This document shows positions 39,073 through 60,341 of a stretch of 64,000 bases of DNA, piece after piece. The notes beneath the pieces were generated by a model, which was not told where the DNA came from, made no database searches, and worked only from the letters and a program-made list of their open reading frames with translations. Source of the DNA: Candidatus Peregrinibacteria bacterium (GTDB lineage: Bacteria > Patescibacteriota > Gracilibacteria > Peribacterales > Peribacteraceae); assembly GCA_018648865.1 (NCBI GenBank), contig JABGQH010000009.1:12917-76916 (forward strand), in the 5' to 3' direction. Both the position numbers and the translations under genes were made by a program. How positions within the stretch are numbered: the stretch's first letter is position 1; each line of letters starts with the position of its first letter.

Positions 39073-39077
39073 TTAAA

Positions 39078-41436: not shown

Positions 41437-41513
41437 TATGTATAATTATAACATATTATACTAAATATGTCTAACTCTTACATTAAATGGTAAATCTTTC
41501 TATACTTAGATAT

Positions 41514-42287: not shown

Positions 42288-42328
42288 CTTTAAGACTTAA
42301 GCTTTAAGCTATAAAAAAATACTTAAAG

Positions 42329-43609
42329 CTAAAAGCTCATAGCTGATAGCTTTGCTTTTGCTACCTCTCTTTCATCCCAATCAACTGCTCCTCCAATTTT
42401 GTTCATTGTGCTAAATGGGCCCATGCCGCATAGAACAACTGCGTCGCCTTCTTTCGCATTTTCAAAAAGGAAGGAGATTGCCTCACTTCTGTCAAAAATC
42501 TTATACGCTTCGCATTTAGATTGATCTATTCCATTCCACACTTCATCAAGTACTGAATGAGGATCTTCTCCGTAGGTTTCATCCTCTGTAGCAACTACGA
42601 AGTCCGCAAGATCACTACATATCTGACCAACTATTGGTCTCTTCTCTTTCATTCTATCTCCACAGCTAGAGCAAAGAACCATTACTCTTCCGTTCCCTCC
42701 AACTATTTGTCTAAGTGTGTTTAGAGTTTTTTCGTATGCATTAGGTGAAACTGCAAAATCTACAAATACAGAGAAAGGTTGTCCTTCATCTATCATCTCC
42801 ATTCTTCCTGGGATACTACTAAAATCGCTTAATGCTTCTACAGCTTCTAAAACAGATATGCCACAAGCTTTGGCACATCCAATTGCACACAAAGCGTTTT
42901 GAATGTTGAACAGACCAGGAATTGGGATAGATAGATTGATATTTTCATCGTTATTATTAATCAATGCAGTACATTTTGTATTTGAGGCTTTAATTTCTTT
43001 TGCTTGAACATCTGCAGCCTCCTCTGTATCTGAAATTGAGATTGTTTTGCCTTTTAAAATAGAAGAGAAATATCCAAAAGATTCATCCGAAGCATTAAGT
43101 ACTTTAGTTCCGTTTTTACTAAGCATTCTAAGCAAAATTGCTTTATCTTTTATATATTGCTTCATTGAACCGTGATAATCCAAATGCTCTAGCGAAATAT
43201 TGGTGATAGTTGCAATACTAGGAAAAGTCCAACTTGAACGTCCTTGTACAAGTCCATGAGAAGACATCTCTACGACTGCATGCGTGCATCCCCTTTTAAC
43301 AAGTTTTCTTAGAAACTTTTGGAGAACGAAAGGGCTTATAGATGTTAAATGCGTAGAATTTTCCTCAACTTCATCTTCTATTTGAACAAATGCTGTAGAT
43401 GCTGCACCTGCTCTAATCCCATTTTTCTTTAGAATATGAGCAATCATTCCAGCAGTAGTGGTTTTACCATCTGTACCAGTTACGCCTATCACAGTTAGTT
43501 TCCTAGCAGGAAAACGGTACTTAAGTGCTGCAATCAATGCTTTAGATTGATGCCAGCCGAGTCTAAGTGGGCTCCTGTTGCCTATATATTTTTTTAAGAA
43601 CTTAATCAC
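42329..43609 (-). CDS. murE: MurE-like UDP-MurNAc-peptide ligase
   Basis: GVTGTDGKTT, EMSSHGL, TNISLEHLDYH, PGRME. Confidence 0.8.
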   Translation of the reverse strand: MIKFLKKYIGNRSPLRLGWHQSKALIAALKYRFPARKLTVIGVTGTDGKTTTAGMIAHILKKNGIRAGAASTAFVQIEDEVEENSTHLTSISPFVLQKFLRKLVKRGCTHAVVEMSSHGLVQGRSSWTFPSIATITNISLEHLDYHGSMKQYIKDKAILLRMLSKNGTKVLNASDESFGYFSSILKGKTISISDTEEAADVQAKEIKASNTKCTALINNNDENINLSIPIPGLFNIQNALCAIGCAKACGISVLEAVEALSDFSSIPGRMEMIDEGQPFSVFVDFAVSPNAYEKTLNTLRQIVGGNGRVMVLCSSCGDRMKEKRPIVGQICSDLADFVVATEDETYGEDPHSVLDEVWNGIDQSKCEAYKIFDRSEAISFLFENAKEGDAVVLCGMGPFSTMNKIGGAVDWDEREVAKAKLSAMSF

Positions 43610-43991
43610 TGAGTATCATTCTACAGGCTTCTATGTCTTGCTCAATCTGGTTCTTTAGTTCTTCTGGCCCTTTAAAATTTTGTACTTCTCTTAAATATTG
43701 CATAACAGTAATAGTTATCTCTTTTGGAAGTGATTCTAGATATGAATCAAGTAGATGAATTTCACATGCTCTGGTGTCATTAAAAACAGGTCTGTCTCCG
43801 TAATGCATTACTCCAATATAAATATTATCATCATCACAGACTTTCACTAAACAGGCATAAATCCCATCATCCATCTCTTCTGGGACAGCAGCCATATTTA
43901 CGTTGATAGTTGGAATTCCGAGTTCTTTCCCGCCTCTGTCTGATCCAGTAATTGCAGAAGCTGTGAATGTTAGTGGTAGGGGAGTTGTCAT
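43602..43991 (-). CDS. Stand-alone riboflavin kinase domain (no FAD synthetase domain)
   Basis: GKELGIPTIN, GIYAC, EIHLLD, LKNQIEQD. Confidence 0.85.
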   Translation of the reverse strand: MTTPLPLTFTASAITGSDRGGKELGIPTINVNMAAVPEEMDDGIYACLVKVCDDDNIYIGVMHYGDRPVFNDTRACEIHLLDSYLESLPKEITITVMQYLREVQNFKGPEELKNQIEQDIEACRMILSD

Positions 43992-44070
43992 AGGTTCAGT
44001 TTACATTATTTACATAAAGACTATATGTTTTATATGAAGATTGAAATATAGGTATGTATACTATTATTAA

Positions 44071-45750
44071 ATGAAAAAGATATGCACAAAGTGTTCGGCA
44101 GGATTTGAGATCACAGAAGAAGATATTGATATGCTGAGTGATTTAAGTCCTGTGATTGGAGGGAAGAAATACGAAATTCCACCACCAACGCTTTGTCCTA
44201 GGTGTAGATCCAAAAGAAGGCTATCTCATGTTAACCAATTAAATTTATATGAGAGGAAATGTAATCTAACTGGAGCAAGCATTATTTCAAATATTAGACC
44301 TGAGTTGCCTTATAAGGTATATCGCCAAGAAGATTGGTACAGCGATAAGTGGGATCCATTAGATTATGGAATGAATTTTGATTTTAATAGACCATTTTTT
44401 GAACAATGGAATGAGCTTGTATTAAATGTTCCACTCCCCAATCTATTTACAGGATATGAATTTGATGAAAATTGTGAATATACAAACCACGCAGGTAAAA
44501 ATCAGAATTGTTATTTGGTTTTTGATTCAGATGAAGACAGAGACTGCTATTACAGCTACAGCATAAATCAGTGTGTAAATTGTATGGACTGCTATCGAAC
44601 TAGGAAGTCTGAATTATGTTATGAGTGTGTTGATTGTGTTAAATGTTATGAGTCTTCATTCTTACAAGATTGTAATAATTGTAGCTCTAGCATGTTTTTA
44701 AAAAACTGTACTGGATGTAAAAACTGCTTGATGTGCTCTAACATGAACAATAAAGAATATTTTGTAGAAAATAAAAAAGTTTCAAAAGAAGAGTTTGAAA
44801 ACTTTAGATCATTATTGGGTTCATATGCTTCTTTAAAGAATGCAAAAGAAAGGTTTATGAAATTAAAATTAGAGTATCCACAAAAATATATACATGGGAT
44901 TCAAAACGAAGATGTAGTAGGGGATTACCTAGTTAATTGTAAAAATGCATATATGTGCTTCGATAGCGAGGACTTATGGGATTGCAGGTATGTTTGCCAA
45001 GGTTTTATGCCTCTAAAAAATTGTATGGATATAGATGAATGTGGAGAGGCAGAAAAGTTGTATGAGTGCACGGTTTGTGGTTACCAAATTAATTCCTGTT
45101 GCTTCTGTGACCATACATTAGGAATGATGACTGACCTTTTATATTGTTCCCATTGCCCACATACTACAGATTCATTTGGTTGCAGAGGTGTTCAAAGAAA
45201 GGAGTACTGCATTCTAAATAAGCAATATACAAAAGAAGAATATGAAGAATTGGTACCTAGGATTATTAATCACATGATTGAAACAGGTGAATGGGGCGAG
45301 AACTTTCCATCCACAACATCTAAATACGCATATAACGAGACGATGGCTCAAGATCATTATCCACTAAATAAAGAGCAGGCAGTTAAAGAAGGTTTAAATT
45401 GGCTAGATGATGAAAAGAAGATTGATCAATACATGGGTCCAGTAAATGTATTACCAGATAATGTGAAAGATGCCCCCGATGATGTTTGTAAAAAAATCTA
45501 CATTTGTGAGGAATCAGGTGAGCCATATAAAATTATTCCTCAGGAACTTTCGTTTTATAAAGAATTAAATTTACCATTACCTAGAAAAGGTTTCTTTAAA
45601 CGTAATAAGGATAGAATGAAGTTAAGAAGCCCAAGAAAATTATATGGCAGGAAATGCGAAGAGTGCGGAATTGAATTCATGACTTCTTATGCATTAGATA
45701 GAGAGGAAAAAATCTTTTGCGAATCCTGTTACCAGAAAGCTCTAATATGA
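44071..45750 (+). CDS. Cys-rich zinc-ribbon/repeat protein, array copy 1
   Basis: CxxC...PTLCPxCR...WYSDKWDP...DFNRPFF, Cys repeats, GEWGE.FP, C-terminal FCESCY. Confidence 0.9.
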   Translation: MKKICTKCSAGFEITEEDIDMLSDLSPVIGGKKYEIPPPTLCPRCRSKRRLSHVNQLNLYERKCNLTGASIISNIRPELPYKVYRQEDWYSDKWDPLDYGMNFDFNRPFFEQWNELVLNVPLPNLFTGYEFDENCEYTNHAGKNQNCYLVFDSDEDRDCYYSYSINQCVNCMDCYRTRKSELCYECVDCVKCYESSFLQDCNNCSSSMFLKNCTGCKNCLMCSNMNNKEYFVENKKVSKEEFENFRSLLGSYASLKNAKERFMKLKLEYPQKYIHGIQNEDVVGDYLVNCKNAYMCFDSEDLWDCRYVCQGFMPLKNCMDIDECGEAEKLYECTVCGYQINSCCFCDHTLGMMTDLLYCSHCPHTTDSFGCRGVQRKEYCILNKQYTKEEYEELVPRIINHMIETGEWGENFPSTTSKYAYNETMAQDHYPLNKEQAVKEGLNWLDDEKKIDQYMGPVNVLPDNVKDAPDDVCKKIYICEESGEPYKIIPQELSFYKELNLPLPRKGFFKRNKDRMKLRSPRKLYGRKCEECGIEFMTSYALDREEKIFCESCYQKALI

Positions 45751-47399
45751 AAAACTCTTGCAGCGAATGCTCGGCAAAATTTGAAGTAACAGATAGTGAT
45801 TTAGAATTCTTTGGTAAATTTAAATACCCCATATCTACACCTACTCTGTGTCCGGCCTGTCGAGTACAAAGGAGGATGTCTTGGAGGAACGATAGAACTT
45901 TCTACCATCGAAAATCCTCCTTATCAAAAAAACAGATGGTATCTATTTATCCAGAAAATACCCCTTGGCCTGTATATCTACAGAGTGAGTGGTATAGCGA
46001 TAAATGGAATCCTTTGGATTATGGAATTGAATTTGATTTTAGCGTTCCATTCTTTACTCAGTTTAAAGAGCTAATGATGACAGTACCTAGACTGGGTATG
46101 GATTTAATTAATTGTGAGAACAGCGAATATTGTAATTACTGTGGTGATGATAAAAACTGTTATTTAGATATTGCAGGTGAGGCCAATGAAGATTGTTACT
46201 TCTGTTTATTTACTAAATATTCAAAAAATTGCTTAGACTGCACATTCGCTTATCATTCAACTCTGTGTCATGAATGCATACAGGTTTACAACTCATATGC
46301 ATGTAGGAATTCTATGTACTTAGATAACTGCAGTGATTGCGCATTTAGTTTCGATCTAAAAGGATGCAAGAACTGCCTACTTTCTATTAACCTTCGTAAT
46401 AAAGAATATTATATTTTGAACGAACCTCATACAAAGGAGGAATATGAAAAGAAACTTTTAGAATTAAATTTGAGTTCTAATGAAGCACTAAAAAGTGTTC
46501 ATGATATTTGGAAAAAAATGAGAATTGAAAATGGAATCTATAGAGACATGTACACCTTGAATTGTGAAGACTGCACAGGAAATAACGTTAAGACATCAAA
46601 AAATTGTCATGGATGTTACAACACAACAGACTCAGAAGATTGTAAATATTTATATGATGTCCTAGATGCAAAGGACTGTCAGGATTTAAATTACTCACTT
46701 TATAAACCAGAGGTAGCATATGAACTCTGTTCAACGTTAAATATGACTTATAGCGCCTTCTGCTACGCTTCTCATTACAGTAATAATTGTTTCTATTGTG
46801 ATAAGACAAATCATAGTAGCAACTGTTTTGGTTGTATTGGATTAGACCATATGGAGTATTGCATTCTGAACAAGCAATATACAAAGGAAGAATACGAAGA
46901 ATTGCTGCCAAGAATTATCGCATACATGGAAAAAACTAAAGAATGGGGACAGTTCTTTCCAGTTACACTTTCACCATATGGATATAACGAAACTGTTGCC
47001 CATGAATACATGCCACTAACTCAGAAAGAGGTAGAGAAGAATGGTTGGGTTTGGACGTTGCAAGAAGAAAAGGAAAGTTACATGGGTCCAGAAGTACAAA
47101 TACCAGATACAATTTCGGATGTAAGCGATGATATTTGTAATGAGCTTATAACCTGCGATAAAAGTGGTAAGCCTTTTAAGATAATTCCACAAGAGCTTAA
47201 ATTTTATCGCGAGCAGGGGATTCCAATACCTAGGAGGTCCCCAATGCAAAGGCATACAGATAGAAATGACCTAAGAAATCCACGCAAGCTCTGGGACAGA
47301 AAATGTGATAAGTGCTCAAATGATATTCAAACAAGTTACAGTCCAGATAGGCCAGAGAAGGTTTTTTGTGAGGAATGTTATCTAAAAGAGGTATACTAG
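45747..47399 (+). CDS. Cys-rich protein, array copy 2 (start ATG 45747, ATGA overlap with copy 1 stop)
   Basis: Paralogue; MKNSCSEC aligns with the other N-termini; ends CEECYLKEVY. Confidence 0.9.
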   Translation: MKNSCSECSAKFEVTDSDLEFFGKFKYPISTPTLCPACRVQRRMSWRNDRTFYHRKSSLSKKQMVSIYPENTPWPVYLQSEWYSDKWNPLDYGIEFDFSVPFFTQFKELMMTVPRLGMDLINCENSEYCNYCGDDKNCYLDIAGEANEDCYFCLFTKYSKNCLDCTFAYHSTLCHECIQVYNSYACRNSMYLDNCSDCAFSFDLKGCKNCLLSINLRNKEYYILNEPHTKEEYEKKLLELNLSSNEALKSVHDIWKKMRIENGIYRDMYTLNCEDCTGNNVKTSKNCHGCYNTTDSEDCKYLYDVLDAKDCQDLNYSLYKPEVAYELCSTLNMTYSAFCYASHYSNNCFYCDKTNHSSNCFGCIGLDHMEYCILNKQYTKEEYEELLPRIIAYMEKTKEWGQFFPVTLSPYGYNETVAHEYMPLTQKEVEKNGWVWTLQEEKESYMGPEVQIPDTISDVSDDICNELITCDKSGKPFKIIPQELKFYREQGIPIPRRSPMQRHTDRNDLRNPRKLWDRKCDKCSNDIQTSYSPDRPEKVFCEECYLKEVY

Positions 47400-47419
47400 G
47401 CACCAATGCAGAAAAAATG
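47361..47419 (+). repeat. 59-bp junction repeat, exact copy at 49050-49108; variants at junctions near 50750-50800, 52435-52485 and 54125-54176
   Basis: GTTTTTTGTGAGGAATGTTATCTAAAAGAGGTATACTAGGCACCAATGCAGAAAAAATG occurs twice. Confidence 0.92.
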
Positions 47420-49088
47420 CTGTAAATGTCCGGGATCGTTTGAAATAACTGACGAGGATTTAGTATTTTACGACAAAGTTTCACCAATAATTAATAAAAA
47501 GAAACACAGAATACCAACTCCTACTCTATGCACACCCTGTAGAGAGCAGAGGCGTTTAGCAATCCCGAATGTTAGAAACTTCTATTCTAGAGAATGTAAT
47601 CTTTGTCAGAAGATGATGGTATCAGCATATGCATCCGATCAACTATTTACAGTCTATTGCCAAGAATGTTGGTGGGGTGATAAGTGGGATGAATTAACTT
47701 ACGGTGTTGATGTTGATTTCTCACGTCCATTTATCGAGCAGATGCAAGAATTACAACTAAAAGTGCCACGGCTTACCTTGATGAATAAGGCTGCAGAGAA
47801 CAGTGAGTTCTGTAACTACGCAGGATTCAACAAGAATTGTTATCTAGCAATTGCTGGTTCGTGGTACAACGAAGATTGTTTATATGGAACGTGTTTCGAT
47901 CACTCAAAAAACTCTGTGGATTGCTCATTTCTTTCTTACGGAGAATTGTGTTACGAATGCATCTATGGCACTAAATTATACAATTGTGTTTACTGTGTTG
48001 ATTCCTCTGATTCCTCAGATTGTCTATTTTCATTCAATTTAAGAGGTTGTAGAAATTGCATTCTAAGCAGTAATATACGTAACAAACAGTATTACATACG
48101 TAATAAGCAATGCACTAAGCAAGAATTTGATGAAATCAGGAGTATGATTTCTAGGTACGAAATCTTCCAGAAATATCTAACAGAGTTTCACAAGTGGAGA
48201 AAAACACTCTTGCGTCCAGCTAACTACAATATTAACTGTGAAGATTGTATCGGCGACTATCTGCGGAATTGCAAAAATGTAGTAAACGGCTTTATTGGAA
48301 ATGGGGTAGAGGATGCAAAAAATGTTTTCATGGTTGAGTATTCAAAGGATTTTATGGACTGTTGTTTTGCAGGTTACGATAATGCTCAACTTTTCTATGA
48401 ATGCATAGCCGCTGGTATAGGAGGGCAGCGTAATCAATTCTGTTTTCAGAATTGGTCATGCAATGACATACTTTATTGCGATACACCACAGTCATCATCA
48501 GACTGTTTCGGTTGCATTTGTATTCGCAATAAACAATTTTGTATTCTAAATAAGCAATATTCAAAGAACGAATACCAAGAGTTAGTACCAAGAATCATAG
48601 ATCTTATGAAAAAACATGGAGAGTGGGGAGAGTTCTTTCCATCTAGCTATAGTCCATTCGCTTATAACGAGACATTTGCTCAAGACTACTATCCTCTAGC
48701 CAAAAAAGAAGCACTAATGAATAATCTAAAATGGAGAGAGGACACTAATGAAATATTAAAAGTAGATCGAACTATACCTTCTAGTAATCTACCTGATTCT
48801 ATCCATGACATTCCAGATGATATTCTTAATTGGGCTGTAATATGTGCAGAAACTGGTAAGCCGTACCGTATTGTAAAACAAGAACTTTACTATTATCGTT
48901 CACAGAACCTACCAGTTCCTCGATTACACTACGATGCTCGCAATAAGCATCGCATCCAATTACACAATTTGAATAAGATACACAAAAAGCAATGCGACAA
49001 GTGCAACAAAGAAATGCATACAGTTTATTCAACTGATTGTTCTGAAACAGTTTTTTGTGAGGAATGTTATCTAAAAGAGGTATACTAG
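47406..49088 (+). CDS. Cys-rich protein, array copy 3
   Basis: Paralogue, 560 aa, ends CEECYLKEVY. Confidence 0.9.
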   Translation: MQKKCCKCPGSFEITDEDLVFYDKVSPIINKKKHRIPTPTLCTPCREQRRLAIPNVRNFYSRECNLCQKMMVSAYASDQLFTVYCQECWWGDKWDELTYGVDVDFSRPFIEQMQELQLKVPRLTLMNKAAENSEFCNYAGFNKNCYLAIAGSWYNEDCLYGTCFDHSKNSVDCSFLSYGELCYECIYGTKLYNCVYCVDSSDSSDCLFSFNLRGCRNCILSSNIRNKQYYIRNKQCTKQEFDEIRSMISRYEIFQKYLTEFHKWRKTLLRPANYNINCEDCIGDYLRNCKNVVNGFIGNGVEDAKNVFMVEYSKDFMDCCFAGYDNAQLFYECIAAGIGGQRNQFCFQNWSCNDILYCDTPQSSSDCFGCICIRNKQFCILNKQYSKNEYQELVPRIIDLMKKHGEWGEFFPSSYSPFAYNETFAQDYYPLAKKEALMNNLKWREDTNEILKVDRTIPSSNLPDSIHDIPDDILNWAVICAETGKPYRIVKQELYYYRSQNLPVPRLHYDARNKHRIQLHNLNKIHKKQCDKCNKEMHTVYSTDCSETVFCEECYLKEVY

Positions 49089-49094
49089 GCACCA

Positions 49095-50786
49095 ATGCAG
49101 AAAAAATGTCCTAAGTGCTCGGCGTCATTTAATGTAACTGACGAGGATATTTTGCTTTTAGATAAATTATCACCAGTGATTAATTCCAAAAAGCATAGTC
49201 TGCCAGCTCCTACATTATGTTTTAGCTGCAGATTACAAAGGAGGCTAGCGTTCTATAATTCTAGATCGATTTATCCTAGGAAATGCGATCTAACAGGAAA
49301 AAACATTGTATCTATTTATTCACCGGATAAGCCATACAAAGTTTACGAGAGAAGAGAATGGTATGGGGATAACTGGGATCCATTTGAATATGGCAGAGAT
49401 TTTGATTTTAATAGACCTTTCTTTGATCAATTCAAAGAATTACTAGATTCGGTTCCACATCTTTCTTTAACAGTACTAGGAGAGACTGTTAATAGTGAAT
49501 TCACTAATGACAATTTGATAGTAAAAAATTGTTATCTAATATTCGACGGAGAGAGAGCAGAGGATTGTATGTATGGTCATACATTTGTTGGTATCACTTC
49601 ATGTTTAGATTTTGCAGCAGCGGTAGATTGTGAACTCTGCTATGAAACGATCCATTGCAATAATTGTTATAACTGCAAATACAGTAGATATTCTACAAAT
49701 TGTAGTGATAGTTGGTTTATTAGGGACTGCATAGGATGTAAGAACTGTTTTGGATGTGCTAATTTGAGGCAAAAACAATATTGCATATTTAATGAACAAA
49801 AAACAAAAGAGGAATACGAGAAATACTTAGAACAATTCGATTCAACCTCGTATAAAACTGTTCAGGATATGATTAATAAAACAAATGAGTTCTTTCTGAA
49901 ATATCCTGTAAAAGAATGTAGAGGAGAACAGAATGTTGATGTCACAGGGAATAATCTAAATCAATCAAAGGATTCAAAAGACTGCTTTGACTGCAACAAA
50001 GTACAGGACTGCCATTACTGCACAAATTGCTTGGTAGGAGCAAAGGACTGCAGTGATATACATATATGGGGAGACAGCATGGAGCTCTGTTATGAAAGCT
50101 GCGTAATTGGTGTAAAGACTCAAAACTTATTGGGCTGTTATTATGTGTCACAAGGTGCAGACAACATACTCTATTCTATGTATTGCAGCAGAAGTGTAAA
50201 AAACCTATTTGGTTGCATAGGGTTACGGCATAAGAGCAATTGTATTTTCAACAAACAATATTCAGCAGAAGAGTATGAAGATCTAGCTGAAAGAATCGTT
50301 GAGCATATGAAGAAGACTGGAGAATGGGGGGAGTTCTTTCCATCTTCTATATCTGGCTTTGGTTATAACGAAACAATGGCTCAGACATTCTTTCCCTTAG
50401 AAAAAGACGATGCAAAGAAGCTTGGCTATTCATGGAGTGAATACCAATCTCCTGTAGAGGCAGATCGTACGATTGATGCTTCAAAGTTGCCAGATAGTAC
50501 AAATGACATCCCAGACGATGTTTTGAACTGGGCCATCGTATGCACAGATACAGGAAAGCCTTTTAAAATAATTAGGAAGGAACTTGAGTTTTATAGAGAT
50601 CATAAATTGCCGATTCCTCGTAAGCACCCAGACCAAAGGCATTACGATAGATTTGCTATTAAAAATCCATATCACCTTTGGGATAGATCATGCGATAAAT
50701 GTTCTAAAGAAATTAAAACAACATACGCACCAGAAAGGCCAGAAACAATTTTCTGTGAAGAATGCTATCTAAAAGAGGTATACTAA
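49095..50786 (+). CDS. Cys-rich protein, array copy 4
   Basis: Paralogue, 563 aa. Confidence 0.9.
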   Translation: MQKKCPKCSASFNVTDEDILLLDKLSPVINSKKHSLPAPTLCFSCRLQRRLAFYNSRSIYPRKCDLTGKNIVSIYSPDKPYKVYERREWYGDNWDPFEYGRDFDFNRPFFDQFKELLDSVPHLSLTVLGETVNSEFTNDNLIVKNCYLIFDGERAEDCMYGHTFVGITSCLDFAAAVDCELCYETIHCNNCYNCKYSRYSTNCSDSWFIRDCIGCKNCFGCANLRQKQYCIFNEQKTKEEYEKYLEQFDSTSYKTVQDMINKTNEFFLKYPVKECRGEQNVDVTGNNLNQSKDSKDCFDCNKVQDCHYCTNCLVGAKDCSDIHIWGDSMELCYESCVIGVKTQNLLGCYYVSQGADNILYSMYCSRSVKNLFGCIGLRHKSNCIFNKQYSAEEYEDLAERIVEHMKKTGEWGEFFPSSISGFGYNETMAQTFFPLEKDDAKKLGYSWSEYQSPVEADRTIDASKLPDSTNDIPDDVLNWAIVCTDTGKPFKIIRKELEFYRDHKLPIPRKHPDQRHYDRFAIKNPYHLWDRSCDKCSKEIKTTYAPERPETIFCEECYLKEVY

Positions 50787-50792
50787 CTGCCA

Positions 50793-52472
50793 ATGCAGCA
50801 AACCTGCGAAAAGTGTTCGGCAATGTTTGAAGTCACAGAAGGGGATTTAGAGTATTACGATGAAATATCGCCTATATTTAACGGAAAGAAATACTTAATA
50901 CCTCCTCCTGTTCAGTGCCCTGAATGTCGCTTTCAGAGGAGGTTAATATTTAGAAATGAAAGAAAATTATATAAAAGAAAATCAGATGTTTCAGGAAAAC
51001 AAATAGTAAGTATGTTTGCTCCAGATAATCCACATAAAACATGTACACAGGACGAGTGGCTTAGTAATGATTTTGACGCAATGCAGTTTAGTAGAGATTT
51101 TGATTTTGATAGTCCATTTTTCGATCAGCTAAAGGAGTTGAATATTGATGTACCGCATCCTGGTTTAAATAATACAAATGTAGAAAATAGCGAATTCACA
51201 AACTTTGCACTAAATCAGAAAAATTGTTATCTGATATTTGGAGCAGGGGATAATGAGGATTGTATATATGGAAAGTTCATTGTCTCTTCTAACAATGTTG
51301 TAGACAATTTGTCGTTATACTCCTGCGAATTTTGTTACGAAGGAGTGTCGTCTCAAAATTGTTATGAATGTACATATTTCAAAAATTGTCATAATTGTGC
51401 AAATTGCATGATGGTAGAAGACTGCAGTTCATGCAAAAACTGTTTAATGTGCTTTGGGTTAAGGAACAAGGAATATTGCATATTGAATGAGCAATTATCT
51501 AAAGAAGAATATGAAAACAGGAGAAGCAAGATTGATCCTTTAACTAATAAGAAGATTTTGGAGATGCAATTTGAATTAGATAAGTTAAAAGAAAACATTC
51601 CTCATATTGATTCTCATATATACGCGAGTGAAGATTGCACTGGTGAAACTATTTATAACAGTAAGGGGTGTCATAATTGCTTTGATATTAAGAATTGTGA
51701 GGATTGTAAATATACATCTTATACTCCGAATGGCGTTGCCTCTTACGACTCCACATTTACTGCTCCGGATGGTGTTAGGTGGTGCAATAATGTTATTTCT
51801 GCAATTGGACACAGGTGCATGGGTACTTTCTTATGTTGGTATACAAACGATGTTTATTACTCAATTAATTGCAGGAATTGTGACTTCTGTTTTGGATGTG
51901 TTGGATTACAGAATCAAAAATATTGTATTTTCAACAAGCAATACTCAAGAGATGAGTATGAAGTCATTGTTCCTAAGATAATCAAAAAAATGGAATCTGC
52001 AGGAGAATGGGGGCATTTCTTGCCTCCAGAACTTTCACATTTTGCATATAACGAGACAATTGCTAACGAATATTTTCCTCTTCTAAAAAAAGAAGTTGAA
52101 AAGAGGGGATTTAGGTGGAGAGAAGAAGATGAAGTTATTCCAGATGTAGAAAAGATAATTCCTGCTAGTCAGCTTCCACCATCAATATCAGATATTCCGG
52201 ACGATATATTAAATTGGGCTGTTAAATGTGAAATAACAGGAAGACCATTTAGAATTATAAAACCAGAATTGAATTACTACAGAAAAATGGGTCTTCCAAT
52301 TCCTCATGTTCATCCAGATGAAAGGCATAATATAAGACTTAGGAAAAAGAATCCTTACAAGCTATGGCAATGTAAGTGTGCAAACTGCTCCAAGGAAATT
52401 AAAACAACCTACGCACCAGAAAGGCCTGAAACAGTTTTTTGTGAAGATTGCTATCTAAAAGAGGTATACTAA
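50793..52472 (+). CDS. Cys-rich protein, array copy 5
   Basis: Paralogue, 559 aa. Confidence 0.9.
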   Translation: MQQTCEKCSAMFEVTEGDLEYYDEISPIFNGKKYLIPPPVQCPECRFQRRLIFRNERKLYKRKSDVSGKQIVSMFAPDNPHKTCTQDEWLSNDFDAMQFSRDFDFDSPFFDQLKELNIDVPHPGLNNTNVENSEFTNFALNQKNCYLIFGAGDNEDCIYGKFIVSSNNVVDNLSLYSCEFCYEGVSSQNCYECTYFKNCHNCANCMMVEDCSSCKNCLMCFGLRNKEYCILNEQLSKEEYENRRSKIDPLTNKKILEMQFELDKLKENIPHIDSHIYASEDCTGETIYNSKGCHNCFDIKNCEDCKYTSYTPNGVASYDSTFTAPDGVRWCNNVISAIGHRCMGTFLCWYTNDVYYSINCRNCDFCFGCVGLQNQKYCIFNKQYSRDEYEVIVPKIIKKMESAGEWGHFLPPELSHFAYNETIANEYFPLLKKEVEKRGFRWREEDEVIPDVEKIIPASQLPPSISDIPDDILNWAVKCEITGRPFRIIKPELNYYRKMGLPIPHVHPDERHNIRLRKKNPYKLWQCKCANCSKEIKTTYAPERPETVFCEDCYLKEVY

Positions 52473-52478
52473 TCACCA

Positions 52479-54164
52479 ATGCAGAAAACTTGTACTAAAT
52501 GTTCGGCTCCGTTCGAGGTAACCGATGATGATATTAAATTTTACGAGAATGTTTCCCCTATTATAAAAGGAGAAAAGTATATTATTACTCCTCCTAAATA
52601 TTGCCCTGATTGCAGATTACAGAGGAAGGTTTGCTTTCGAAATGAACGCATGTTTTATAGTCGAAAAAGTGATTTAACAGGAGATATGATGGTTTCCATA
52701 TATGCTCCAGATATTCCATACAAGATATATGATCAAGAAGAATGGTGGAGCAAGAAGTGGGATGCCAGAGACTATGGACGTGAATTTGATTTTACAAGAC
52801 CATTTTTTGATCAAATGAATGACCTATGGAAGGAGGTTCCAATAGTTACATTATGGAATTCAAACTGCGAGAATGCCACATATAACAATAACTGCTTCCA
52901 TTTGAAGGATAGTTATATGAATTACAACAGTGACGAAGGAGAGAGAATTATGTATTCATATGGAACGGAATTCTGCACTGATTCTGCTGATTGTACATTC
53001 GTACAAAAATCTGAACTTTGTTATGAATGTACCGATTGTACGAGAGCATATACATGTATATTTTCTAGTCTTTTGGATAACTGCACAGACTGCTCATTCA
53101 GTTCAGACTTGATGGGATGTAAGAATTGTTTTGGCTGCCATGGACTTAGACAACAAAGTTATTGTTTCTTTAATGAACATCTCTCAAAAGATGAGTGGGA
53201 AGATCGTATGAAATCTATTAGTTATACACCACAAAATATAAGTAAATATAAAAAACAATCTGAAGAAGTGCGTATGAAGGTGCCACAAGTTGCTACAAAA
53301 ATGGTGCAGTGTTCGGACAGTACAGGAAACTTTTTATATAACTGTGCCAATTCTGAAAATTGTTTTGATATGCATAATTGCGAATTTGTTAAGAATGGAA
53401 TTTACGTTCCTTGGGACGTAAAACATGCGCAAGATGTATACGCACATGCTGGAGCAGAATGGAGTTACGAAGTAATTGCAGGGGGAATAGGAATTTCACA
53501 TGTTGCATTTATAAATGGTTTAGTTAGTGGCCTAAGTGATAGTTACTATTCAGTCCAATGCGGATACGGATCTAATAATCTATTTGGATGTGTAAGTATG
53601 ATGAAATATAAATATTGCATTTTAAATAAGCAGTACACAAAAGAAGAATACGAAGAGCTTGTGCCTCGTGTCATAGAACACATGAAAAAGAATGGAGAAT
53701 GGGGAGAATTCTTTCCCCCTAGTATTAGTCCATTTGCGTATAACGAAACAATGGCACAGGAATTCTTCCCTCTAACAAAAGAAGAAGCTCTTAATCAAGG
53801 ATATAAATGGAGAGATATACAAGATGAACTGCCAAAATCTGACAGAGTGATTTCTTCAGATAAGTTGCCACCATCAATCGAAGATATTCCTGACGACATC
53901 CTAAATTGGGCAATTAAATGTGAAGTTAGTGGGAGACTTTATAAAATTACATCTCAAGAATTGGATTTTTACCGTCGCATGAAATTACCGGTTCCGAGAT
54001 TGCATTACGAGAAGCGCTATCAAAACAGGGCAAAAAGTCGACCTCCACGCAAGCTTTGGAATCGCAAATGTAACAAGTGTGATATTGATATACAGACAGT
54101 CTATTCACCTGATAGGCCAGAGAAAGTTTTTTGTGAAGATTGCTATTTAAAAGAGGTATACTAA
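52479..54164 (+). CDS. Cys-rich protein, array copy 6
   Basis: Paralogue, 561 aa. Confidence 0.9.
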   Translation: MQKTCTKCSAPFEVTDDDIKFYENVSPIIKGEKYIITPPKYCPDCRLQRKVCFRNERMFYSRKSDLTGDMMVSIYAPDIPYKIYDQEEWWSKKWDARDYGREFDFTRPFFDQMNDLWKEVPIVTLWNSNCENATYNNNCFHLKDSYMNYNSDEGERIMYSYGTEFCTDSADCTFVQKSELCYECTDCTRAYTCIFSSLLDNCTDCSFSSDLMGCKNCFGCHGLRQQSYCFFNEHLSKDEWEDRMKSISYTPQNISKYKKQSEEVRMKVPQVATKMVQCSDSTGNFLYNCANSENCFDMHNCEFVKNGIYVPWDVKHAQDVYAHAGAEWSYEVIAGGIGISHVAFINGLVSGLSDSYYSVQCGYGSNNLFGCVSMMKYKYCILNKQYTKEEYEELVPRVIEHMKKNGEWGEFFPPSISPFAYNETMAQEFFPLTKEEALNQGYKWRDIQDELPKSDRVISSDKLPPSIEDIPDDILNWAIKCEVSGRLYKITSQELDFYRRMKLPVPRLHYEKRYQNRAKSRPPRKLWNRKCNKCDIDIQTVYSPDRPEKVFCEDCYLKEVY

Positions 54165-54170
54165 ATACCA

Positions 54171-55835
54171 ATGCAGAATTGTATTTCATGTAACGTTTCA
54201 TTCGAAGATAGTCAGGCAGAGATATCTTTAAGAGCAAAGATTGGCGATGCTATACAAAAAGGTGATTTGCCAGAGCCAAAGCTATGTTGTGACTGCAGAT
54301 TAATTCAACTAATGAGTTGGAGGAATGAACGCATTCTATATACGAGAATGTGTGATAAGAGTGGCAAAAAGATAATCTCTGTTTATCCGCAAAATGTAGC
54401 TTTCCCTGTTTATGAAAAATCTATTTGGTGGGGAGACAGTTGGAACGCCACAAACTATGGCCAGGATTATGATTTTAATAGACCATTCTTTGAGCAGTTT
54501 GCAGAATTACAAAGAAATACTCCTCGTGCGTCATTAAATACAAAGAATGTTGAGAATTGCGATTATTGTAATTTTACGTTTGATTCAAAAGATAGTTACT
54601 TAACAACGTGTTGTTATTACTCAGAATCAATTCTATACAGTTTTTGGATGCTTGAGTGCAAAGATTGTACTGAATGTAGTTATTGTTTTCAGTGTCAGAA
54701 CTGTTTGCAGTGCACTGACTGCAATAAATCATATGGTTGCTATGAGTGTGTGCAATGCAATGTTTGCACTGATAGTTCGTACTTATTTGATTGTCGTGGT
54801 TGTACAGACTGTTTTTGTAGTGTCGGATTAAGAAATGCTAAATATCACATGTTTAATGAGAAATTATCTAAAGAAGAATTTGAAAATAGAATGAAAGAAT
54901 TTGATTTGCAAAATCCAGTACATGTAGAAAAGGTAAAAGAACGATTAGATGCTTTAAAATTAAAACACCCACACAAATATTCTGTGCAGGAAAAGTGTGA
55001 AGACTCAACGGGGGACCATATAGTAGAATTAAAAGACTGCAAAAATTGCTATCAGACATTTAGATCCAGAGATTGTATAAATGTAACAGACGCGGACGGA
55101 AACAATGATTTGCTTGATTGCTATCATACTGGTTGGTCAGAAATGATATATGAAGGATATTCACCAGTTAGACTTAGGAACTCTGCATTTGAGGTACAAT
55201 GCTGGGATGGCAATGACATCTTCTATTCAGATACATGCCAGAATTGCTCATATTGCTTTGGGTGTATTAGCTTGCGACAAAATAAATATTGCATATTGAA
55301 TAAACAATATTCAAAAGAAGAATATGAAGTAATGCTCTATAAAATAATTAATCATATGAAATCTACAGGTGAGTGGGGGAAATTCTTTCCAAATGAAATT
55401 TGTATATTTTCTTATAACGATTCTGTGGCTCAGGATGTATATCCTCTAGAAAAAGAGGAAGCAATTAAACGAGGATGGAAATGGCAAGATAATCTCCCAT
55501 TTACTATGGGAAAGGAAACTACAACTTGGAATAGCTATGAAATGAAGATTGAAAAGGTGCAAGAAGATATATTAAATGAGATATTTGCCTGTGAATGTTG
55601 TAAAAAGAATTATCGTATAATTAGATCTGAACTCAAGTTTTATAAACAAATGAAGTTACCATTATCTAGGCTTTGTTCAGGATGTAGACACTTAGAAAGG
55701 ATCAAGACCAGAAATCCAAGAAATTTACATAACAGAACATGTAATAAATGTAATAAGGAAATTCAAACCACTTTTGCACCAGAAAGACCAGAAAAGGTTT
55801 ACTGCGAGGAATGTTATTTGAAAGAGGTTTATTGA
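54171..55835 (+). CDS. Cys-rich protein, array copy 7
   Basis: Paralogue, 554 aa. Confidence 0.9.
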   Translation: MQNCISCNVSFEDSQAEISLRAKIGDAIQKGDLPEPKLCCDCRLIQLMSWRNERILYTRMCDKSGKKIISVYPQNVAFPVYEKSIWWGDSWNATNYGQDYDFNRPFFEQFAELQRNTPRASLNTKNVENCDYCNFTFDSKDSYLTTCCYYSESILYSFWMLECKDCTECSYCFQCQNCLQCTDCNKSYGCYECVQCNVCTDSSYLFDCRGCTDCFCSVGLRNAKYHMFNEKLSKEEFENRMKEFDLQNPVHVEKVKERLDALKLKHPHKYSVQEKCEDSTGDHIVELKDCKNCYQTFRSRDCINVTDADGNNDLLDCYHTGWSEMIYEGYSPVRLRNSAFEVQCWDGNDIFYSDTCQNCSYCFGCISLRQNKYCILNKQYSKEEYEVMLYKIINHMKSTGEWGKFFPNEICIFSYNDSVAQDVYPLEKEEAIKRGWKWQDNLPFTMGKETTTWNSYEMKIEKVQEDILNEIFACECCKKNYRIIRSELKFYKQMKLPLSRLCSGCRHLERIKTRNPRNLHNRTCNKCNKEIQTTFAPERPEKVYCEECYLKEVY

Positions 55836-55877
55836 TTCTTATACGTAATATCAATTTGCTGTTATTATATTTAAGTA

Positions 55878-57545
55878 ATGCAAAAAACATGTAACCAGTG
55901 TTCAACTTCATATGAAATATATGATGATGACAAAGCGCTTCTACATAAAATTTCGCCTACAATTGGTGGTAGAAAATTTGAAATACCAGTATCGGATATT
56001 TGCCCAGAATGTAGGCAGCAACGTAGAATGTCCTTTAGAAACGAAAGGAAGCTGTATCGCAGGAAATGTGATGTTACAGGCAAGGATATCATTTCTATAT
56101 TCTCTTCGGACTCTCTTTTTAAGGTATGTGATAAGGATTACTGGTATAGCGATAAATTTGATCCCTTGGAATATGGCAGAGACTATGATTTTAATAGGCC
56201 ATTCTTTGAGCAATTCAAGGATTTGTCATTAACAATCCCTATGCCATCTATGCGCGTGGAAAGGTCAGAGAATTGTGATTTTAACAATGACATGGGGGAT
56301 TGTAAGAACTGTTACTTGTGTGCACGAACACATCAGTCACAGGATCTTATATACACATACAGAGGCAACAGATCATCTAGTTCAATAGATTGCACTCAGA
56401 TAACCAGATCAGAGATTCTTTATGAATGTGTTGATTGTGTTAAGTGCTACAACTGTAAATATTCATTCTTTTGTAGTGAATGTACAGATTGTTCTTTTCT
56501 ACTTGATTGTAGGAGTTGCATGTCCTGCTTTATGTGTACAAATCTTAGGAGTAAACAGTATTGTTTCTTAAATGAGCAACTAACCAAAGAAGAGTACGAG
56601 AAAAGACTTTCAGAATTTAATTTTGGTTCTTATGACCATGTTCAAAGAGCTTACAAAATGTACGCAGATATAAAAAAGAAAGCCATCCGTAGGAATCTTA
56701 TAAAAGTAAATGCAAACAACTCAACAGGCGACAATTTAATAGACTGTAATAATTGCCATATGTGCTTTAGCACTCAGTTTACAGAGGACGGTAGGTATCT
56801 GTGGGATGTTAAGGATTACAAGGATTCAATGGATGCATATAGCGGAGGAAGAAATAGTGAGCTTATGTACTACACAACTGCAGGGGCTGCTTCGTATAGT
56901 GTTCAGTTTTGCTTTAGGACATCTGGATGTAATGATGTTTTGTATTCGTTCTATATTAATACATCTAAAAACATATTTGGATCTATCGGTTTAAAAAGGG
57001 GAAACTTTTGCATTCTAAACAAGGAATATACAGAAGATGAATATAACGATCTGATGCCAAAGATTATTGATCATATGATCAGCACTGGTGAGTGGGGCAA
57101 GTTCTTTCCGTCTTCCCTTTGTCCATTTGCTTATAATGAAACTGTTGCTGACGAATTCTTTCCCCTAGATAAGGGAAGAGCTAACGATTTAGGATATAGG
57201 TGGAAAGAAGATGATCCAAAGGATTTTATGCCTCAAACATATAACATTCCAAATAACATTTCTGATGTTAAGGATGATATTTTAAATGAGGTTTTGGCAT
57301 GTGATACATGTAATAAGAATTACAAGATAGTTCCTGCTGAACTTAAGTTTTATAGAAATCATAATCTAGCTATTCCTAGGTACTGCATCGATTGCAGACA
57401 TATGAGGAGAAATAAAACAAAGAACCCAATGAGAATTAGAAAAGACATTTGCAAGAAATGTAATTCAGAAATGGATACTACATATCCAGAAGGAACAGAT
57501 ATGCAGATAATTTGTGATGATTGCTATCTAAAAGAGGTTTATTAA
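55878..57545 (+). CDS. Cys-rich protein, array copy 8
   Basis: Paralogue, 555 aa, ends CDDCYLKEVY. Confidence 0.9.
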   Translation: MQKTCNQCSTSYEIYDDDKALLHKISPTIGGRKFEIPVSDICPECRQQRRMSFRNERKLYRRKCDVTGKDIISIFSSDSLFKVCDKDYWYSDKFDPLEYGRDYDFNRPFFEQFKDLSLTIPMPSMRVERSENCDFNNDMGDCKNCYLCARTHQSQDLIYTYRGNRSSSSIDCTQITRSEILYECVDCVKCYNCKYSFFCSECTDCSFLLDCRSCMSCFMCTNLRSKQYCFLNEQLTKEEYEKRLSEFNFGSYDHVQRAYKMYADIKKKAIRRNLIKVNANNSTGDNLIDCNNCHMCFSTQFTEDGRYLWDVKDYKDSMDAYSGGRNSELMYYTTAGAASYSVQFCFRTSGCNDVLYSFYINTSKNIFGSIGLKRGNFCILNKEYTEDEYNDLMPKIIDHMISTGEWGKFFPSSLCPFAYNETVADEFFPLDKGRANDLGYRWKEDDPKDFMPQTYNIPNNISDVKDDILNEVLACDTCNKNYKIVPAELKFYRNHNLAIPRYCIDCRHMRRNKTKNPMRIRKDICKKCNSEMDTTYPEGTDMQIICDDCYLKEVY

Positions 57546-57652
57546 TAAAATATAGGGGTGGGGGTATATATATGCATTCAAAAGTGGCTATTTATCGCTA
57601 ATATATGCAGAGAAAGCTTCACATTTAGTAAATTTTAAAGTAAAATTCATGA

Positions 57653-59893
57653 TTGATGGCGCTTTCTTATTTGCATATCGTTATTCCACAGGGAAACCCA
57701 AATTCTCCTAAGTTAGAATCAAAATGGCAGGAGTTGTTAATTGCTCTAAGAAATACGATTACAGGTGAAAGGTTTTCATTTGAGTATTTTGGAAACGAAC
57801 AATATACATATTTTTATGTAGTTTCTAAAAAGAAGTACCAAGGAACCATAGAGGGTCGAATATACTCTTCGTTCCCAGATGCAGAAATATATGAAGTAAG
57901 TGATTACACTAGCAAGTTTAATCCAGAAAAAAGTGGATTTGCTGGGACACAGGTATCTCTATCAGAAAAAGATGTTTATCCAACTAGAACATACGAACAA
58001 TTTGAGGAAGACAGCATGGCACCATTCTTTTCAGTGGTTTCTAAGATAGAAAGTGGTGAGCAAGTTTGGACTCAAATAATTGTAGAGCCGCATGACGATA
58101 CAGGTAGATATCATTTAAGAAGGAATTTTAGGTATTGGCTGGTTAGAATGAAAAAGTTCTTTTCTGTGCGGGATAGATTAAGGAAGGAAGGATTGAAGGG
58201 AATAAATGCAGTAAGATTTGATATGGCAAAAGATAAAGAAAAAACAAAACCATTCAAGGTAAGTATCAGATGTTGCTACATTGCGAAAGATTCAGAAATA
58301 GCAAAAAGAAAGCTCCGCTCTGTAGTTAATAGCTTTTATCAATTCAATGATTCAGATATTAATTCATTTGAATCTTCTAGGTACTCAACTTCCGATAAAT
58401 TCATTGATAATTACAAAAACAGAAAGCACGCAAAGACATTCATATTAAGTGCTAAGGAATGTGCAACCATATATCACTTACCAAATGCGGACTTTACTCC
58501 ACATATAGTTCATGTACTTGCTCGCAAATCAGATCCTCCTAGAGATCTACCAAGAAAAGGAGAGAAAGAAGTAAGTGCTTTTGGTGTTACCAATTACCAT
58601 AACAACTTTGTTCCATTTGGTATAAAGAGAGAGGACAGAAGGAGACATTTGTATTGTGTAGGTAAGTCTGGATCTGGAAAAAGTAAATTATTGGAACTAT
58701 TGATTAATACAGACATAAAAGATGGTCACGGTGTTGCTGTCTTGGATCCTCATGGTGATTTAGTAGATGCAATACTTAAGCTAATCCCAGAGGAAAGGAA
58801 AGATGATGTAGTTTTGTTAGATCCAGGTGATATAGATTTTCCAATTGCGTTTAACCCACTTCAACAAGTTGATGAGGCATACAAAATGCAATTAACAATT
58901 GGATTCTTAGATATTTTCAAGAAGCTATTTGGAGATAACTGGACATATAGATTGGAGCACGTGCTTAGATATACAACTCTAGCTTTGTTAGACAGCCCTA
59001 ATACTACAGTCTTAAGCATACTTAAGATGCTTACAGACAAGAACTACAGACAAAAGATTGTTTCTAGGATCAACGATAATGTTGTTAAGAGTTTCTGGGT
59101 TAGCGAGTTTGCTGCATGGAGTGAAAAGTACGATGCTGAAGCAATTACACCACTGCTAAATAAAGTTGGGCAATTAGTAGCAACAAACATGGTTAGGAAC
59201 GTAATTGGTCAGCCAGAAACAAAGTTTGATATCAGAGAGATAATGGACAACAAGAAAATACTTCTTATGAAAGTATCCAAGGGACTACTCGGAGAAGAAA
59301 ACTCAGCTCTAGTAGGATCAATGATTATCACAAAGATGTATCAGGCTGCAATGAGTAGGGCAGATACTGCAGAGGCAGATAGACCTGATTTCTACTTTTA
59401 TGTAGATGAGTTCCAGAACTTTGCCACAGACACATTTTATGAAATCTTATCTGAAGCTAGAAAGTATCATCTTAATTTAACAATCGCTCATCAATATATG
59501 GGACAGTTGAGTGATAAGATTAGGCAAACAGTATTCGGTAATGTTGGTTCTATGATTAGCTTCCGTGTTGGAGCAGAGGATGCAAAGATTCTATCAGAGG
59601 AGTACAGTCCTATCTTTAACGAGCGCGATATTATTAATCTTGGTGTACGTGAGTTCTACACAAAGATGTCCATAGATGGAGAAATTAGAGAAGCTTTCTC
59701 TGGCAGAACCATGGATGCTCCAGTTCCTACAAATGATATATCTAAAGAAATAAGAGAATTATCTCGAAAGAAATATTGTGAACCAAAAGCAAATGTAGAA
59801 GTAATGTTAAAGAAATGGGATGAAGCAGCTTCTGCAGAAGCAACAGAAGAAGAAATGGCAGTAGAAGAAAAGTTTGAGGAGCCAATATTGTAA
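57653..59893 (+). CDS. VirD4/TraD/TrwB-like (HerA-FtsK superfamily) ATPase
   Basis: HLYCVGKSGSGKS, LDPHGDL, FYVDEFQNF, LSEARKY, AHQY, FRVG.EDA. Confidence 0.9.
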   Translation: MMALSYLHIVIPQGNPNSPKLESKWQELLIALRNTITGERFSFEYFGNEQYTYFYVVSKKKYQGTIEGRIYSSFPDAEIYEVSDYTSKFNPEKSGFAGTQVSLSEKDVYPTRTYEQFEEDSMAPFFSVVSKIESGEQVWTQIIVEPHDDTGRYHLRRNFRYWLVRMKKFFSVRDRLRKEGLKGINAVRFDMAKDKEKTKPFKVSIRCCYIAKDSEIAKRKLRSVVNSFYQFNDSDINSFESSRYSTSDKFIDNYKNRKHAKTFILSAKECATIYHLPNADFTPHIVHVLARKSDPPRDLPRKGEKEVSAFGVTNYHNNFVPFGIKREDRRRHLYCVGKSGSGKSKLLELLINTDIKDGHGVAVLDPHGDLVDAILKLIPEERKDDVVLLDPGDIDFPIAFNPLQQVDEAYKMQLTIGFLDIFKKLFGDNWTYRLEHVLRYTTLALLDSPNTTVLSILKMLTDKNYRQKIVSRINDNVVKSFWVSEFAAWSEKYDAEAITPLLNKVGQLVATNMVRNVIGQPETKFDIREIMDNKKILLMKVSKGLLGEENSALVGSMIITKMYQAAMSRADTAEADRPDFYFYVDEFQNFATDTFYEILSEARKYHLNLTIAHQYMGQLSDKIRQTVFGNVGSMISFRVGAEDAKILSEEYSPIFNERDIINLGVREFYTKMSIDGEIREAFSGRTMDAPVPTNDISKEIRELSRKKYCEPKANVEVMLKKWDEAASAEATEEEMAVEEKFEEPIL

Positions 59894-60118
59894 TCGGATC
59901 TTGAAATTAGAAGTAAATTACTTTTTATAAAAGTAAGTACCCCTTCATTCCGCTTTGCGGAACTTCGGAGCACACAGTATCTTGCGACTCACTGCGTCGC
60001 TACGCTCCTTGCTTGTCTGCAATTCAACTGTGGCGGAGCCATGTAGTAAGAACTTTCTCGTTTTTGTTGTATTTATTGGCCTGCCATGTAGTGAACGAAC
60101 GAAGTGAGTTCTACTACA

Positions 60119-60209
60119 TGGCGGAGAGAGAGGGATTCGAACCCTCGAGACCCTGTAAGAGCCTAACGGTTTTCAAGACCGTCGCCATCGACCACTCGGC
60201 CACCTCTCC
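60119..60209 (-). tRNA. tRNA-Ser (anticodon TGA), CCA encoded
   Basis: GGAGAGGTGGCCGAGTGGTC...ACGGT-CT-TGA-AA-ACCGT...GGTTCGAATCC...CTCTCCGCCA. Confidence 0.95.
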
Positions 60210-60285
60210 AAAACAATTATAAAGCAAAAATTGACCAATGTCTTCAATAGTTTCTAAATTTCGATTAATATTATATGACTAAGAA

Positions 60286-60341
60286 GACCACTTTACCCCG
60301 CACTTGAGCGAAGCTCATAGTGTAGGGTCGGCCACCTCTCC
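60286..60341 (-). pseudogene. 5' fragment of tRNA-Ser(TGA) interrupted by a 36-bp hairpin (60292-60327)
   Basis: Plus strand GACCAC[TTTACCCCGCACTTGAGCGAAGCTCATAGTGTAGGG]TCGGCCACCTCTCC equals tRNA nt 1-20; preceded by TGCTATAAT. Confidence 0.85.

Follow-up and report, generated by a model that had tools for sequence, protein, structure and literature searches.

A tandem array of related genes in a Candidatus Peregrinibacteria genome raises the question of why neighbouring genes share near-identical ends while the remainder of their sequences has diverged. The array lies in a stretch of 64,000 nt, which we call the window (G000:C15:12917-76916), in a Peregrinibacteria-type genome of 1.13 Mb and 36% G+C. 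It consists of eight head-to-tail paralogues at 44071-57545, all on the + strand and 550-563 codons each, which are 35-44% identical in protein and 50-56% in DNA, with a cysteine content of 5.5-8.5%. We numbered the genes g1 (44071-45750), g2 (45747-47399), g3 (47406-49088), g4 (49095-50786), g5 (50793-52472), g6 (52479-54164), g7 (54171-55835) and g8 (55878-57545). A preliminary description of the window had proposed that the gene ends act as recombination handles through which whole genes are inserted, excised or swapped. We think it fairly likely that the junction repeat is a small promoter located in the last codons of the upstream gene, and that the repeats have also been homogenised within the genome by gene conversion.

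The junctions from g2/g3 to g6/g7 are alike in sequence and in spacing. All five read AAAGAGGTATACTAR NNN CCA ATGCAG with a gap of 6 nt between the genes. The motif has five sites in the genome, all in the array, with none on the reverse strand and none for a reversed-pattern control. A 59-bp tract that covers the end of g2, the spacer GCACCA and the first 14 nt of g3 (47361-47419, +) recurs exactly in the end of g3, the spacer and the first 14 nt of g4 (49050-49108, +), and a mismatch bounds the identity on either side. Over these 59 positions, junctions J2/3 and J3/4 have no differences, compared with 7-13 in the other nine junction pairs. The stop codon is TAG at J2/3 and J3/4 and TAA at the other three internal junctions. 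The ends of g4 and g5 are also alike, with 70 matches over the last 75 nt. The motif is missing from the outer junctions: g1 and g2 overlap by 4 nt (ATGA), and g7 and g8 are spaced by 42 nt. In what it had stated about the junction sequences, the preliminary description was accurate throughout.

What does the shared sequence contain? At each internal junction, the codons GTA and TAC at the end of the upstream gene, together with the T of its stop codon, spell TATACT, which resembles a -10 promoter box and lies 8 nt before the ATG of the next gene. These boxes are located at 47392-47397 before g3, 49081-49086 before g4, 50779-50784 before g5, 52465-52470 before g6 and 54157-54162 before g7, all on the + strand. 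The ATG of g1 is likewise preceded at 8 nt by this hexamer, there in non-coding DNA (44057-44062, +), and a -10-like TATATT (55866-55871, +) lies in the 42-nt spacer 6 nt before the ATG of g8. A hexamer of the type expected for leaderless genes is thus present before g1 and g3-g7 as TATACT and before g8 as TATATT. Six of these starts have it 8 nt away and one has it 6 nt away; the genome peak is at 6-9 nt. There is no such box before the start of g2. Neither g7, which ends in GAG GTT TAT TGA ahead of the 42-nt spacer, nor g8, which is the last copy and ends in GAG GTT TAT TAA with no gene tightly after it, encodes a box at its own end.

The distance between box and start codon matches a property of the whole host genome. 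Among 768 genes, called as the first ATG of long open reading frames (ORFs), TAnnnT ended 6, 7, 8 and 9 nt before the ATG in 107, 77, 59 and 66 genes, respectively, and in about 20-37 genes at other distances. With the array left out, 282 of 759 genes had TAnnnT at one of the distances from 6 to 9 nt, where the background is 26.9 per position, and both T at -15 (0.44) and G at -14 (0.36) were enriched genome-wide. All five internal junctions have G at -14, which has a frequency of 0.47 before family genes. At -15 they have A, not the T of an extended -10 element (TG at -15/-14). The genome has 20 copies of the junction core GGTATACT, and in 10 cases an ORF of at least 80 aa starts 6-9 nt downstream; five of these 10 copies are in the array and five precede unrelated genes. 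A TANNNT sequence close to the start codon is given as the signature of leaderless genes in PMC3160421.

We made several further observations on start regions and box sequences in this genome. An unrelated gene with a GTG start at 5777-6748 (+) of the window has CTAAAGAGGTATACT 6 nt upstream, in a divergent intergenic region, and this sequence differs little from the array junction. The positions immediately ahead of gene starts are enriched in C-rich words. TATAAT and TATACT both occur at under half their mononucleotide expectation (996 vs 2144 and 464 vs 1247).

We compared the junctions with those of related genomes, using 95 loci with 404 family ORFs and 390 distinct 3' ends. The gap to the next family gene had peaks at -1 (46 cases), 6 (13), 4 (12), 2 (10) and -4 nt (8), and in 150 cases the gap was longer than 40 nt. 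Among genes whose products end in EVY, GAG GTA TAC was found in 19 of 22 with a gap of 3-8 nt, compared with 3 of 67 with a gap longer than 40 nt, 2 of 23 without a next family gene and none of 10 overlapping genes (Fisher p = 2e-13). A TAnnnT box 6-9 nt before the start was present at 26 of 31 junctions with gaps of 4-7 nt, and at 22 of 27, from 19 loci, when the window was left out. The corresponding counts were 5 of 53 for overlapping neighbours, 4 of 23 for gaps of 0-3 nt and 1 of 9 for gaps of 8-12 nt (10 of 85 together), and the background rate is about 0.12. The stop codon begins with the last T of the box, and a gap of 4-7 nt is therefore the same thing as a box-to-start distance of 6-9 nt. 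The 6-nt gap in the array would then be fixed because it sets the box-to-start distance at 8 nt.

The gap classes also bear on the idea that the 6-nt gaps keep g2-g7 in one frame, so that read-through of stop codons could yield fusion proteins. The five successive junctions are indeed in frame, and the stop-to-stop frames are contiguous from 47399 to 55835. In relatives, however, the motif is retained although gaps of 4, 5 and 7 nt put successive genes out of frame, and all three stop codons are in use at the junctions. We regard read-through as an extremely improbable reason for the fixed gap.

Family genes in other contexts carry the same box. Tight junctions at which the upstream product has a tail other than EVY (KAVY, SQVY, KQVY, KTVY) retain GGTATACT and drop GAGG. 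Before family genes in a non-coding context, no hexamer is more frequent than TATACT (26 of 91), and G is enriched at both -14 and -13. In three genomes, six non-coding relics that would encode ..ECYLKEVY* (in-frame ORFs of 17-30 codons) are found 4-6 nt before family starts. Such relics would be expected if the last ~35 nt of a lost upstream gene had been kept for driving the next gene. The loci concerned are L034, L036 (genome G024), L038 (genome G023) and L106, and some relics are repeated within one genome.

An alternative is that the junction is a Shine-Dalgarno (SD) site, AAAGAGGT or AAGGAGGT, in the end of the upstream gene, which couples translation of successive genes on a polycistronic mRNA. 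GAGGT is part of the motif here, AAGGAGGT is found in several relatives, and the genes are tightly packed; a terminator scan over 43900-57800 gave no more hits than shuffled sequences and no terminator-like sites between genes. The translation apparatus of this organism argues otherwise. Its 16S rRNA ends in ..CACTTCCTTA, and the tail ..ACACTTCCTTA carries CUUCC in place of the anti-SD core CCUCC. Candidatus Peribacter riflensis, of the Peregrinibacteria, is listed in PMC10783764 among the SD-scarce organisms that lack CCUCC. Consistent with this, GGAGG was found 3-8 nt upstream of only 4 of the 768 genes, and SD-like 5-mers showed no positional enrichment before those genes. Moreover, GAGG ends 14 nt before the ATG, outside the 5-10 nt spacing of SD sites, and an SD site would leave the conserved synonymous sites in GTA TAC unexplained. 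The retention of GGTATACT where GAGG is lost likewise favours a -10 box and disfavours an SD site. We consider the SD alternative highly unlikely.

From the sequence statistics, the conservation across genera and the concerted pattern described below, we infer promoter activity, transcription start sites and a conversion mechanism as two layers of one explanation. In the first layer, the predicted promoter would consist of TATACT with G at -14 and -13, placed across the Val codon GTA, the Tyr codon TAC and the initial T of the stop codon. Transcription by RNA polymerase would begin 6-9 nt past the box, at the ATG of the next gene or 1-2 nt before it. Each of g1 and g3-g8 would thereby be expressed from its own leaderless or nearly leaderless mRNA, in an organism without SD initiation.

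Expression of g2 would follow a different route. Lacking a box and overlapping g1, this gene is probably translated in coupling to g1, by termination-reinitiation. The first gene is a family member with a different C-terminus (..CESCYQKALI), and its stop codon overlaps the start of g2 (ATGA). In other genera, too, the gene after a g1 orthologue (identity up to 67%) overlaps it or follows it closely. More generally, a g1-type subfamily (g1 and members at loci L035, L037 and L111) has a C-terminus like CYQ..LI and lacks the box at its end, and the next gene overlaps the g1-type gene or starts within a few nt, both here and in several relatives. This arrangement suggests that a g1-type gene and the gene after it form a conserved, translationally coupled pair. 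A tether in the manner of a termination upstream ribosome-binding site, through complementarity of GTATAC to 16S rRNA, was considered and rejected, as the 1474-nt 16S rRNA holds no match.

The second layer concerns the identity of the junctions. The preliminary description had held that junctions are homogenised relative to gene bodies, and this was borne out both in the window and in the arrays of relatives, by contrasts in identity and by a permutation test. We permuted the order of polymorphic sites among units g2-g6 in a GENECONV-like procedure. The g2 and g3 units shared a run of 17 matching polymorphic sites (global p = 0.0015), and none of the other nine unit pairs was significant (global p of at least 0.24). 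Outside the window the pattern extends further. In genomes G024 and G023, genes with 32-53% protein identity share 70-99% identity over the 82 nt that precede the fifth codon. Five aligned modules from G024 are homogenised from the last ~35 nt of one gene, through a spacer of 82-98 nt, to the first ~40 nt of the next gene, beyond which identity falls to background. The non-coding spacers of 82-98 nt in relatives reach 98-99% identity between genes that are 46-49% identical, and the junction modules of relatives span 80-190 bp.

Gene bodies have a different history from gene ends. Seven of the eight window genes, all but g3, are nearer to a gene of another genus (50-67%) than to any home paralogue. 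Body identity is 0.58 between cross-genus orthologues and 0.39-0.42 between window paralogues. The order is reversed in the last 14 residues, with 0.68 for cross-genus orthologues and 0.89 for window paralogues (g2-g6), and in the first 14 residues, with 0.46 and 0.56, respectively. A Phe before CxxCY is found in 6 of the 8 window genes and in only 18 of 353 relatives, 286 of which carry Tyr. This Phe thus seems to be a derived state, common to six paralogues whose orthologues carry Tyr. Since the module types are specific to each genome while the bodies are orthologous between genomes, ends and spacers would have been copied among the paralogues inside each genome.

Could purifying selection on the protein ends and the promoter be sufficient, with the 59-bp identity a coincidence of constraint? 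The preliminary description had named synonymous identity as a check on its proposal, and this check gave a mixed result. Whole-gene synonymous codon identity over all 28 gene pairs is 2975/5960 (0.50), and the C-terminal block, at 0.58-0.67, is like the other conserved blocks at 0.51-0.67. As the all-pairs value at the C-terminus is not above that of other blocks, the excess is specific to copies 2-6 and to particular positions. Selection alone would fit this result, and also the fact that a single tract passed the permutation test. It fits poorly with J2/3 and J3/4, which share the TAG stop codon, all three free bases of the spacer and synonymous sites at which the other junctions differ, so that constraint cannot explain the whole of the 59-bp identity. 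The derived Phe and the near-identical spacers between divergent genes in relatives also speak against it. We judge selection alone quite unlikely. To an assembly artefact we give almost no weight, because a 59-bp patch in otherwise 50%-identical DNA is unlike a collapse or chimera and the same junction type is present at 19 loci of independent assemblies.

We therefore return to gene conversion as the second layer of our proposal. Junction modules would evolve in concert by short-tract gene conversion or unequal recombination. Each module extends from the last 10-25 codons of one gene across the spacer into the first 5-15 codons of its neighbour. Constraint on the protein (a zinc-ribbon end CxxCYLKEVY and a start MQKxC), together with constraint on the promoter, would make these modules the sole stretches with long identical runs. 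The gene bodies would be old paralogues, each with separate orthologues in other genera.

Several points weigh against this explanation. Gene starts in the host genome are called crudely. A -35 element is absent at the junctions, and a standard sigma-70 scan for two hexamers over 43900-57800 flags no junction, with 43 hits compared with 61.8 in shuffled sequences. The base before the ATG is A at the junctions, whereas it is T or C in 0.69 of the box-bearing genes of this genome, and the 8-nt distance is rarer genome-wide than 6 or 7 nt. Reinitiation alone could express g3-g7. Of 27 other same-strand pairs in this genome that are tightly spaced, with a gap of 4-8 nt, only 5 carry the box, so it is not a general necessity at such pairs and is instead a feature of the family. 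In the cross-genus comparison, kin among the 95 loci are not independent, and the Fisher p-values (about 1e-13) therefore overstate the contrast; the junction pattern across gap classes is nonetheless categorical. As to conversion, a single tract in the window reaches significance by itself, and the 75-nt likeness of g4 and g5 does not.

We also weighed the possibility that the junctions belong to a dedicated site-specific cassette system, in which a trans-acting recombinase moves whole genes. Homogenised modules around differing bodies are compatible with such a system, as are the relic gene ends carried ahead of genes. Orthologues of the window genes in other genera have different neighbours and orders, and the gene order of the window is kept by no relative among the 95 loci. 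In a same-genus genome that is 75% complete (L130, G001:C20:1875-6146), the flank of Lgt, Mur ligase and riboflavin kinase is kept, and an unrelated, open-ended ORF of 317 aa lies where the window array starts, within the ~950 nt that are readable beyond the flank. That genome has only one weak family match. Arrays thus appear to have been gained, lost and rearranged between genomes, and to this extent the proposal of the preliminary description is supported. The compared genera are distant, however, and ordinary duplication, loss and rearrangement suffice to explain such differences.

The dedicated mechanism itself is unsupported. The fixed motif and gap, which had been read as recombination handles, are better explained by the promoter-next-to-start architecture of this genome, which both the core and its distance to the ATG match. 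The core is kept synonymously across genera only at 6-9 nt from the next start, and it also occurs before unrelated genes and in non-coding DNA. Junction types vary by genome (overlaps of -1 or -4, gaps of 4-7 nt, long spacers), unlike a single recombination site. No inverted repeat is common to the junctions; there is one weak 9-nt pair in J2/3 and none in J4/5. The statement that the window encodes no recombinase holds for the part of it that was scanned, namely ten flanking ORFs (36092-43991 and 57653-63662); apart from an ATPase and a C39 peptidase, these have metabolic or envelope functions. We consider a dedicated cassette system very unlikely. What survives of the recombination proposal is homologous recombination or gene conversion at the junctions, which is plausible.

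A broader possibility combines both ideas, with the junction module as a portable expression-and-recombination unit for adding, deleting and re-pairing the bodies of this cysteine-rich family. We hold this to be unlikely. If it were true, it would amount to programmed variation of which paralogues are present and expressed, in a family of up to about 38 genes. It would be analogous to surface-variation cassettes, but with full-length, individually promoted genes. Relic ends, genome-specific module types and shuffled orthologue orders would then be its footprints.

How does the array compare with known systems? In Actinobacteria and Deinococcus-Thermus, leaderless genes are described in which a -10 box (TANNNT) immediately precedes the start codon (PMC3160421, PMC4007540, PMC12340547). 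The array is like these systems in having TAnnnT 6-9 nt before ATG or GTG, no SD and no clear -35 element, as a genome-wide feature. It is unlike them in its lineage, the Peregrinibacteria of the Candidate Phyla Radiation (CPR), and in the location of the box, which lies in the last two sense codons and the stop codon of the preceding paralogue and is kept synonymously across genera. In the literature, we found no description of leaderless promoters in the Peregrinibacteria/CPR lineage or of the array family, and the work that pairs Peregrinibacteria with the term leaderless concerns loss of the anti-SD.

Internal promoters occur within operons or upstream coding sequence, and the predicted array promoter similarly lies inside the 3' end of the upstream gene. 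It differs in that the box is repeated at each paralogue junction and is co-constrained with a conserved zinc-ribbon C-terminus. The upstream homology box (UHB) of the Borrelia erp/ospE-F genes is a highly similar, promoter-bearing 5' flank ahead of far more divergent coding bodies, and recombination among these genes has been proposed. The array likewise shares a similar, putatively promoter-bearing flank over divergent bodies. It has no sequence relation to the UHB, is tandem and chromosomal rather than spread over prophage-plasmid loci, and its homogenised tract covers both a gene end and the start of the next gene. An antigenic role is not implied, as the array products show no obvious signal peptide and seem to be cytoplasmic, zinc-binding proteins. 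Conserved flanks around variable bodies are also found in pilS/pilE, the 70-bp repeats of variant surface glycoprotein genes, shufflons and integron attC sites. Unlike those systems of programmed variation, the array has neither silent partial cassettes nor a single expression site. Its copies are all full length, each with what we describe as a start signal of its own, and neither a recombinase in the ten flanking ORFs nor site-type inverted repeats were found.

Start-adjacent leaderless promoters and concerted evolution of promoter-bearing flanks are therefore known kinds of phenomenon. What appears to be new is that a putative -10 box is formed by the terminal Val-Tyr-stop codons of the preceding paralogue and kept synonymously across CPR genera, and the apparent placement of this box inside concertedly evolving junction modules of a very large, unannotated family. 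The proposal offers a testable picture of expression in an uncultured CPR lineage that has lost the anti-SD core. If the promoter is real, regulatory information resides in the gap length and the stop codon as well as in synonymous sites, and gene finders and operon predictors that assume SD sites and polycistrons will misread such genomes. Ends that evolve in concert around bodies kept as separate orthologues are usually a mark of selection for diversity.

The family is large and patchily distributed. It is present in 24 of 41 related genomes, including the host genome, and reaches 38 matches in one genome of 0.9 Mb, with 25 matches in a 1.2-Mb genome and 23 in a 1.4-Mb genome. Among the 24 genomes from the same taxonomic family, 13 carry members. 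In one search, 5980 of 8000 scored database proteins matched at E <= 0.001, and the named relatives are metagenome-assembled genomes of Candidatus Peregrinibacteria/Peribacteria. The full family copies in the host genome are exactly the eight of the array, and there is one weak partial match on another contig. A 122-codon open frame (L009, G000:C20:199216-199455) is weakly like the last 80 residues of the family (E = 1.6e-5), and it may be a stand-alone zinc-ribbon relative.

The array proteins gave few matches to described families or structures. Searches against Pfam and NCBIfam returned no family above threshold, with sub-threshold treble-clef zinc-finger hits at both ends of g6, and PADLOC gave no match for g4 and g7. 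We chose the g4 protein for modelling, and AlphaFold2 with an alignment of 66 sequences gave a model with a predicted local distance difference test score (pLDDT) of 84 and a predicted template modelling score (pTM) of 0.85. Foldseek found no match for this model in the PDB at E <= 0.001. In VIA-align its best Z was 4.4, a weak likeness to beta-solenoids over residues 127-270 and 273-386. These are the two cysteine-rich middle parts of the protein; its ends are zinc-ribbon-like. Matches in the ESM Atlas were confined to unnamed CPR clusters. No obvious signal peptide was seen on inspection of the array protein sequences, for which no predictor was run. A cluster of 14 cysteine-rich genes is described in Candidatus Peribacter with large products (7.2% Cys, mean 1655 aa, exported; PMC4736985), and it may overlap the array family.

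A gene for a HerA/VirD4-like ATPase (57653-59893, +; Pfam DUF87, TrwB_AAD_bind and TraG-D_C) follows the array. Among the genomes tested, orthologues of this ATPase (67-69% identity) were found only in two that bear the family (G004:C57:8985-11219 and G007:C2:6799-9027), and in the latter an array immediately precedes the ATPase gene. In both of the family-less genomes tested, there were only ATPase paralogues at 43-44%. The ATPase is possibly linked to the family in function.

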